DNA of 64,000 nt, taken from the NCBI RefSeq assembly GCF_054482595.1, contig NZ_CM137008.1; one strand, written 5' to 3'. Made by a program: the position numbers and the translations under genes. Below the pieces are notes generated by a model. The model made no database searches. It worked only from the letters and a program-made list of their open reading frames with translations, and was not told the origin of the DNA. Below are positions 21,772 through 22,247 of the stretch, piece by piece. The first letter of the stretch is position 1; each line of letters begins with the position of its first letter.

Positions 21772-22247
21772 GCCGGATAAGGCGCTCGCGCCGCATCCGG
21801 CAACGGTGCCGACTGCCTGATGCGACGCTTGCGCGTCTTATCAGGCCTACAAATTCCCGCACCCTCCGTAGGCCGGATAAGGCGTTTACGCCGCATCCGG
21901 CAACAGTGCCGACTGCCTGATGCGACGCTTGCGCGTCTTATCAGGCCTACAAATTCCCGCACCATCCGTAGGCCGGATAAGGCGTTTACGCCGCATCCGG
22001 CAACGGTGCCGACTGCCTGATGCGACGCTTGCGCGTCTTATCAGGCCTACAAATTCCCGCACCCTCCGTAGGCCGGATAAGGCGTTTACGCCGCATCCGG
22101 CAACGGTGCCGACTGCCTGATGCGACGCTCGCGCGTCTTATCAGGCCTACAAATTCCCGCACCCTCCGTAGGCCGGATAAGGCGTTTACGCCGCATCCGG
22201 CAACAGTGCCGACTGCCTGATGCGACGCTCGCGCGTCTTATCAGGCC
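21772..22247. repeat. BIME/REP array, ~4.6 tandem units of ~100 bp
   Basis: gccggataaggcg...ccgcatccggca...cttatcaggcctac units repeat with exact 100-bp period and a few SNPs between units. Confidence 0.9.

Follow-up and report, generated by a model that had tools for sequence, protein, structure and literature searches.

The closest described relative of the DNA examined here is REP325, a cluster of repetitive extragenic palindromic (REP) sequences in Escherichia coli K-12. In strain MG1655 it lies between the genes yjdM and yjdN and is composed of six 77-bp Y-l-Z2 repeats and their U spacers (Qian et al. 2015, PMC4550694). According to the same study, transcription apparently runs from the yjdM promoter towards yjdN and yields the RNAs naRNA1-6, of which naRNA2 is the same as naRNA4, and the spacer between the pairs, named 'U', is called 'unknown'. 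REP325 of K-12 ranks among the longest REP clusters of that genome. BIME-2, a class of bacterial interspersed mosaic element (BIME), is described in Ton-Hoang et al. 2012 (PMC3333891) as opposed Y and Z2 sequences with a short linker, repeated in tandem a variable number of times from strain to strain.

The stretch analysed here, referred to as the window, is 64,000 nt long and comes from contig NZ_CM137008.1 of NCBI RefSeq assembly GCF_054482595.1. Between yjdM (phnA) and yjdN (phnB) it carries an array of five Y-Z2 pairs at 21768-22247 on the + strand. The array is E. coli REP325, a named and previously studied BIME-2/naRNA locus, and as such was already known; it has served two experimental studies as their model REP, and its occurrence in one more strain is routine. 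Its fit to the BIME-2 definition quoted above is supported. The additions of the present analysis are modest and comprise a census of the locus, the derivation of alleles by whole units, the arithmetic of the open reading frames (ORFs) within the repeats and a 1-nt discrepancy in the published spacers. Our overall reading, to which we assign a probability of about 85%, is that the five-pair array is carried on the yjdM-yjdN transcript and acts locally, with yjdM stabilised and yjdN attenuated, and that the ORFs inside it are not genes.

Anatomy and identity of the array

A first-pass annotation, made from the letters alone, had described a BIME array with a 100-bp period between phnA and phnB. 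This description holds. Tandem Repeats Finder detects a single tandem array that spans 21768-22247, with a period of 100, 4.8 copies, 97% matches, a score of 897 and no indels, the units are formed of a Y and an inverted Z2 sequence, and the flanking genes are identified by Pfam and RefSeq. The earlier extent (21772-22247, about 4.6 units) is correct at its end, but the array starts at 21768 and has 4.8 copies. Counted from 21768, the array divides into four complete 100-bp units plus a fifth of 80 bp, giving five Y-Z2 pairs with four U spacers of 23 bp. Each unit has the Y palindrome (GTAGGCCGGATAAGGCG-TTTA-CGCCGCATCCGGCA) and the inverted Z2 palindrome (TGCCTGATGCGACGC-TTGC-GCGTCTTATCAGGCCTAC), set apart by a short linker that measures 11-13 nt, and then the spacer. 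Pattern matching places the spacers (TACAAATTCCCGCACCCTCCGTA) at 21848-21870, 21948-21970, 22048-22070 and 22148-22170 on the + strand. In BIME-2 elements this place between the pairs is assigned to an s, l or r motif. The array contains five Y patterns and five Z2 patterns, all with 0 mismatches, while the chance expectation for the Y, Z2 and spacer patterns is 0 matches (100 dinucleotide-preserving shuffles of the window).

The Y and Z2 patterns were drawn from the sequence itself and from a consensus, and an Rfam model provides the independent check. RF02564 (naRNA4, 'nucleoid-associated noncoding RNA 4', also CssrE) matches all five units on the + strand at 101.8-111 bits, over its full length (model positions 1-77 of 77) and with a gathering score of 59.5. 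The - strand of the units scores 53-54 bits, which is under the threshold. However, RF02564 behaves as a general model of Y/Z REP pairs because three other REP pairs in the window also exceed the threshold, so that a match alone is no proof of a dedicated small RNA (sRNA) gene.

All units have the Y-S-Z2 layout on the + strand. Unit 1 (77 nt, 21771-21847) scores 101.8 bits and, by comparison with single-pair alleles, retains the Y variant of the single-pair allele, with a GTAA foot and a CTCG loop. Unit 2 (21871-21947) scores 108.9 bits and is directly followed by a variant spacer ending in ...CACCATCC, a marker that is also present once in the arrays of K-12, PK8275, PCP06102 and LR-48. The top match, at 111 bits, is unit 3 (21971-22047). 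Unit 4 (22071-22147; 108.8 bits) has the Z2 loop variant CTCGC, and unit 5 (22171-22247; 106.7 bits) is the last pair. Single-nucleotide differences between the units occur at unit positions 38 (G/A), 63 (T/C) and 97 (C/A), and the three that had been listed in the first-pass annotation are thereby real; unit 1 has further differences, at position 4 and within its Y loop. On the + strand the Y sequences start with GTAG in units 2-5 and with GTAA in unit 1. The Z2 sequences end in CTAC at the 3' side in units 1-4, and the fifth merges into the 3' flank (...GGCCGCC) without CTAC. An inverted-repeat finder with 9-nt seeds returned nothing over 21700-22320, because mismatches interrupt the REP stems. 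A CRISPR-like array was considered and rejected, as the 'spacers' are identical to each other.

The resemblance to MG1655 REP325 covers the yjdM-yjdN position, the strand, the 77-bp Y-linker-Z2 unit and the 23-bp U spacer. Over all 100 bp, unit 3 of the window shows no difference from units 2 and 4 of MG1655 (the naRNA2 and naRNA4 genes), and positions 21971-22047 are an exact copy of naRNA4. The two arrays also share their first Y REP, as well as their last unit together with its 3' flank. The differences lie in length, with six pairs and a 657-bp intergenic region in MG1655 versus five pairs and 557 bp in the window, in the linker of unit 1, which is GCCAGA in MG1655 and GCCGAC in the window, and in the C-type Z2 loop of unit 4 of the window. 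In MG1655 the spacer of unit 3 ends in ...CACCATCC (CCATCC) and the other K-12 U spacers end in ...CACCCTCC; therefore, the statement in Qian et al. 2015 that the five K-12 spacers are identical is off by 1 nt. No repeat features are annotated at the yjdM-yjdN locus in the RefSeq record of MG1655.

In RNA folding the + strand of each 77-nt unit is predicted to form two separate hairpins at about -43 kcal/mol, with z values of -4.5 to -4.8 (unit 1, two hairpins, -42.9 kcal/mol, z = -4.5; unit 3, -42.8 kcal/mol, z = -4.8). The whole 581-nt stretch folds with z = -10.8. Variation avoids the stems: a comparison of 13 different 100-bp units, taken from 12 loci in E. coli, shows variation in 0 of 48 stem columns versus 12 of 52 columns in loops, linkers or spacers (Fisher p = 2.6e-4, a value that overstates independence, the units being related by duplication). 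The stems of other REPs in the window carry compensatory double changes relative to those of REP325 (GCC..GGC becomes GTC..GAC, and GGCG..CGCC becomes GGTG..CACC). Judged from these alignments, the conserved feature is the palindrome.

Copy number and reading frames across E. coli

The number of pairs at this locus had been expected to vary between strains, and a comparison across E. coli genomes had been proposed. Copy number was counted with a flank-only BLAST search (yjdM plus yjdN, REP sequence excluded) against complete E. coli genomes and with a query for the spacer junction. These replaced a whole-locus BLAST search, which split K-12-type loci because of REPs dispersed in the genome. 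The flank-only search found the locus in 5,417 of 5,426 genomes. Spans were tabulated for 59 rows with both flanks, sampled at even steps down the ranking. A span of 937 bp, or one pair, was found in 38 of the 59 genomes, and two pairs (1035-1036 bp) were found in three. Four pairs (1235-1237 bp) occurred in four genomes, five pairs as in the window (1335-1337 bp) in seven, and six pairs as in K-12 (1435-1437 bp) in another seven, a class that is inflated by K-12 laboratory derivatives. Three-pair alleles with spans of 1135 and 1142 bp were found by the whole-locus search. The 50-nt spacer junction, of which one copy means at least two pairs, is present at least once in 2,172 of the 5,426 genomes (40%), with a median of 4 and a maximum of 10 junctions per carrier. 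About 60% of the 5,426 genomes have a single Y-Z2 pair at the locus. MG1655 has exactly five junctions, all at REP325. The expectation was thus borne out by both the 59-genome sample and the 5,426-genome count, with one to six pairs in 100-bp steps. Among 100,044 species-representative genomes, with the E. coli representative included, the junction had 0 matches; this null covers only multi-unit arrays with this exact spacer.

The alleles are related by whole units. Locus spans step by 100 bp (937, 1035, 1135, 1235, 1335 and 1435). The single-pair allele has a variant Z2, with loop TGAC and 2 nt longer, and a distinct 3' flank (GGCTTCCC). Array alleles preserve a first Y of the single-pair type, and PK8275, PCP06102 and LR-48 also have a last Z2 of that type. 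T-type Z2 loops are on the 5' side and C-type loops on the 3' side in every allele. The marker unit with the CCATCC spacer is present once in five- and six-pair arrays and in the four-pair array of PK8275, and is absent from the other arrays of up to four pairs. Removing exactly two units from the K-12 allele, between its identical units 2 and 4, yields the four-pair allele of gb37 and NT1F10. The 100-bp steps and these derivations fit in-register unequal recombination or slippage, and copy number may well change in this way between the near-identical 100-bp units.

Tandem arrays break assemblies, and this array is prone to collapse or expansion in them. Many database copies of its ORFs are labelled 'partial' at contig ends. 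One record of BL21(RP), NZ_CP084683.1, has REP325-like units in a junk poly-C region. Nevertheless, it is very unlikely that the five-unit length of the window is an artefact of such collapse or expansion. Over its whole 1,335 bp, the yjdM-yjdN locus shares 100% identity with that in the complete genome of strain XH990, an equal length is found in the independent complete genomes H2-H4, H83, H84, H88, H95 and H103, and the units bear distinct combinations of single-nucleotide differences that a collapse would blur. The BL21(RP) record, which was the top match of the junction query, was discarded from the census since the region lies away from yjdM. Its units, at 1201-1560 of the extracted segment, sit in a run of more than 100 C beside insertion sequence fragments and look like an assembly artefact.

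The ORFs inside the repeats follow from the period. The + strand has 66-aa frames at 21820-22020, 21920-22120 and 22020-22220, and a shortened 58-aa related ORF at 22120-22296. The - strand has ORFs of 56-58 aa at 21886-22062, 21986-22162 and 22086-22256, in agreement with the earlier mention of antisense ORFs. The three 66-aa frames had been called identical; their coordinates are right, but only copies 2 and 3 are identical and copy 1 differs at two residues (Q/R and I/L). The predicted protein is 24% arginine, and every ORF begins with ATG. The same ATG-to-stop stretch recurs every 100 bp, each time in the next frame, because 100 = 1 mod 3. In the consensus array each frame has one stop per 300 nt, and open stretches reach at most 79 codons on the + strand and 83 codons on the - strand. 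How many ORFs there are depends directly on how many units the array has. The 66-aa ORF is absent from one-pair and two-pair alleles, the latter having either no ORF or only the 58-aa shortened copy, and a 7-bp duplication in strain F6326-C1 abolishes all 66-aa ORFs.

That these frames encode real arginine-rich small proteins is extremely improbable. GenBank does contain an identical 66-aa sequence, entered as a 'hypothetical protein' for several E. coli genomes; it belongs to a cluster of 53 members at 90% identity, and the ATG starts would suit a protein. However, the 40 of the 53 members that were examined are all from E. coli, and many of them are 'partial' at contig ends, which points to database contamination and to an array that breaks short-read assemblies. 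The array ORFs have no Pfam match and the 66-aa ORFs have no upstream Shine-Dalgarno sequence. The ORF is missing from one- and two-pair alleles, and in one strain the 7-bp duplication removed every copy. Of the three differences between units that fall inside the ORFs, two alter an amino acid. The first-pass annotation had suggested asking whether the protein or the palindrome is conserved, and the answer is the palindrome, with invariant stems (0 of 48 columns) and no constraint on the reading frame. In none of the 15 yjdM-yjdN records inspected does the NCBI annotation pipeline (PGAP) call an intact coding sequence within the array, and there is one frameshifted pseudogene call. The conclusion that the 66-aa ORFs are by-products of a GC-rich 100-bp repeat and not genes, as the first-pass annotation had proposed, is well supported, and array ORFs should stay out of gene annotation. 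The pseudogene call, in E. coli L-formLTE (NZ_CP169632.1, 620-928 of the extracted segment), is an antisense 'frameshifted; incomplete' pseudo hypothetical protein inside the REP325 array, and is a repeat-derived ORF leaking into annotation. In GenBank a 35-aa member of the REP-ORF cluster is labelled 'mannitol-1-phosphate 5-dehydrogenase', which is very likely an annotation error.

Probable local action on yjdM and yjdN and its alternatives

The array lies between two genes on the same strand. Upstream is yjdM (phnA, 21418-21753, +), which encodes a 111-aa zinc-ribbon protein (Pfam YjdM and Zn_Ribbon_YjdM; RefSeq annotation of XH990). Downstream is yjdN (phnB, 22311-22754, +), which encodes a 147-aa protein with a VOC/glyoxalase fold (Pfam Glyoxalase and 3-dmu-9_3-mt; RefSeq). 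The intergenic distance is 557 bp. A gap of 14 nt (21754-21767, +) separates the yjdM stop from the GTAA foot of the first REP, and a unique 63-nt spacer (22248-22310, +) separates the array from the yjdN start codon. A sigma-70-like site upstream of yjdM (21322-21350, +; CCGACA-17-TATAAT, 10/12), found by consensus match only, is a candidate promoter of the yjdM-REP325-yjdN transcript. There is no promoter-like match within the array or in the 63-nt spacer. No intrinsic-terminator-like site was reported in 21768-22310, where the REP hairpins have no downstream T-run. The absence of both kinds of signal from the array and spacer fits co-transcription and a non-intrinsic mode of termination. 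An intrinsic (Rho-independent) terminator was considered as an identity for the GC-rich hairpins and was rejected for the missing T-run.

In the mechanism that we favour, the array would be transcribed on the + strand within the yjdM-yjdN transcript, and each pair would give two stable RNA hairpins. The hairpin stack would block 3'-to-5' decay, so that yjdM mRNA is stabilised, and would attenuate transcription into yjdN, partly via Rho. Attenuation would leave a ladder of hairpin-ended RNAs (the 'naRNAs') able to bind HU. This scheme is modelled on K-12, where Harris et al. 2026 (bioRxiv 10.64898/2026.03.23.713779) report that deletion of REP325 drops the yjdM/yjdN RNA ratio from about 35 to about 1, with yjdM about 3-fold down and yjdN about 10-fold up. 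In the same preprint, REP325 RNA is a ladder of hairpin-ended species and bicyclomycin lifts read-through from 23% to 39%. By analogy with this literature, transcription, stabilisation, attenuation and HU binding most likely apply to the five-pair allele as well.

Several points weigh against this assignment. The functional evidence concerns the six-pair K-12 array, comes largely from one 2026 preprint and includes much plasmid over-expression. In that preprint (bioRxiv 10.64898/2026.03.23.713779) Rho dependence was seen with the full 12-hairpin array only and not with 2-4 hairpins, and endogenous REP325 RNA is scarce, at about 1-2 copies per cell. The window array has 10 hairpins versus the 12 of the Rho-dependent K-12 array. 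A multi-unit array is also dispensable, given that roughly 60% of E. coli genomes carry a single pair. The relatedness of the units in the stem comparison lowers the weight of its p-value. Finally, the change in copy number may be mediated by REP-associated tyrosine transposase (RAYT) rather than by homologous recombination; recombination by a REP-associated transposase has been shown in vitro (Ton-Hoang et al. 2012, PMC3333891).

One alternative makes REP325 a global chromosome organiser: RNAs cut from the array, naRNA1-6 and above all naRNA4, would bind HU, link cruciform REP DNA across the chromosome and compact the nucleoid. This model was proposed by Qian et al. 2015 (PMC4550694), who found REP325 RNAs in nucleoid fractions and in HU RNA immunoprecipitation (RIP-Chip) fractions. 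In their transmission electron micrographs deletion of REP325 decondensed the nucleoid and plasmid-borne naRNA4 rescued it, REP-REP contacts in chromosome conformation capture needed both HU and REP325, and condensation was seen in vitro by atomic force microscopy. The K-12 literature gives a dissociation constant of about 32 nM for HU and naRNA4, and the window holds an exact naRNA4 copy. In contrast, Harris et al. 2026 (bioRxiv 10.64898/2026.03.23.713779) found no stable ternary complex and no REP-REP contacts by Hi-C, saw nucleoid volume unchanged on deletion or over-expression, and cite independent studies with minimal effect. Adhya is a co-author of this preprint, and its authors overlap with those of the 2015 paper. 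The census also counts against an organiser, since most genomes have a single pair and a species-wide architectural role of the multi-unit array is therefore unlikely. Taken together, we regard the organiser as unlikely for the array in the window.

Two further alternatives concern the immediate surroundings of the array. By analogy with other loci, it may act at the DNA level as a strong site of DNA gyrase binding and cleavage, independent of transcription, that tunes local supercoiling, a role that would be compatible with one in RNA. A published study of other BIME-2 loci found BIME-2 elements significantly enriched in vivo for gyrase cleavage sites, mainly at Y REPs, with a cleavage signal that increases when transcription is blocked, and the array has BIME-2 anatomy. 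However, only a subset of BIME-2 elements is cleaved, and the study highlighted sucC-sucB and tldD-yhdP and not yjdM-yjdN, so that a gyrase site here is a possibility that we consider doubtful. The array could also regulate translation if the first REP hairpin stalled ribosomes terminating at the yjdM stop and lowered YjdM via trans-translation. The GTAA foot of the first REP is 14 nt past the stop, and a 2024 preprint places REP325 among the REPs within the 15-nt limit of this model. The first paired base, however, is 18 nt past the stop codon, which is borderline, and deletion of REP325 in K-12 lowers yjdM RNA, which protection from decay explains without translation; this role seems rather improbable. 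Local stabilisation of yjdM with attenuation of yjdN remains the reading that we prefer.

If this local action applies, the allelic series may have a function of its own. We tentatively suggest, at somewhat worse than even odds, that the series of one to at least six pairs in 100-bp steps is a heritable 'dial' on the yjdM:yjdN ratio, with Rho attenuation setting in above a hairpin threshold, and that the census also excludes a species-wide nucleoid role. Neither the dial nor the census-based objection to the nucleoid role was found in the literature on REP325 that was examined. The alleles are a ready natural series for relating hairpin number to mRNA stabilisation and Rho-dependent attenuation.

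Neighbouring features and comparison with known systems

A hairpin that resembles a terminator, T-run included (CGGCAATCTGCCG TTTTTTGGCG), is present at 21363-21385 (+), after the promoter-like site and before the start of yjdM at 21418; it could serve as a leader or an attenuator, or the match could be due to chance. The crfC (yjdA) ORF at 18788-21016 (-) is intact with 742 aa and is annotated as a frameshifted pseudogene in XH990, so that the window, despite its identical yjdM-yjdN locus, probably does not derive from that very record. Two Rfam matches lie elsewhere in the window. A full-length match to RF02052 (the enterobacterial sRNA STnc630) is found at 15936-16101 (-) with 177 bits and E = 5e-36. 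A match to RF01988 (SECIS_2, selenocysteine insertion sequence) at 51317-51371 (+) scores 87 bits with a cut-off of 70, which suggests a selenoprotein gene there.

The window also has other REP sequences. Isolated Y-type REP matches are present on the - strand at 3239-3268 and 30045-30074, one with 3 mismatches and one with 0. An inverted REP pair at 24720-24806 lies between a phnD-like ORF (23700-24716) and the next ORF, presumably phnE, and matches RF02564 with 69 bits on the - strand (24723-24803); its stems have compensatory changes relative to the REP325 Y stem. A second BIME-type array at 53838-54100, with REPs on the - strand, repeats about every 113 bp and comprises some 2.3 units, each formed of Z2, linker, Y and a 41-nt spacer. 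Its pairs at 53840-53910 and 53953-54023 (-) match RF02564 at 75-77 bits. These two BIMEs are also Y/Z pairs over the RF02564 threshold, but their scores are lower and their linkers differ from those of REP325.

The units of the window also resemble REPINs, the substrates of RAYT (TnpA-REP), in their inverted REP pair, GTAG foot and mismatched stem. Folding of the - strand of a unit gives one long hairpin with internal mismatches (-43.8 kcal/mol), as in a REPIN, and a 2024 preprint reports that RAREFAN predicts REP325 to be a RAYT-associated REPIN. The copy-number changes seen here are explained equally well by homologous recombination between units. With the BIME-2 clusters of the Gilson and Bachellier classification, for example those at sucC-sucB and tldD-yhdP, the array shares alternating opposed Y and Z2 sequences, a short linker and a variable tandem number; the REP325 spacer junction, in contrast, occurs in MG1655 at yjdM-yjdN only.

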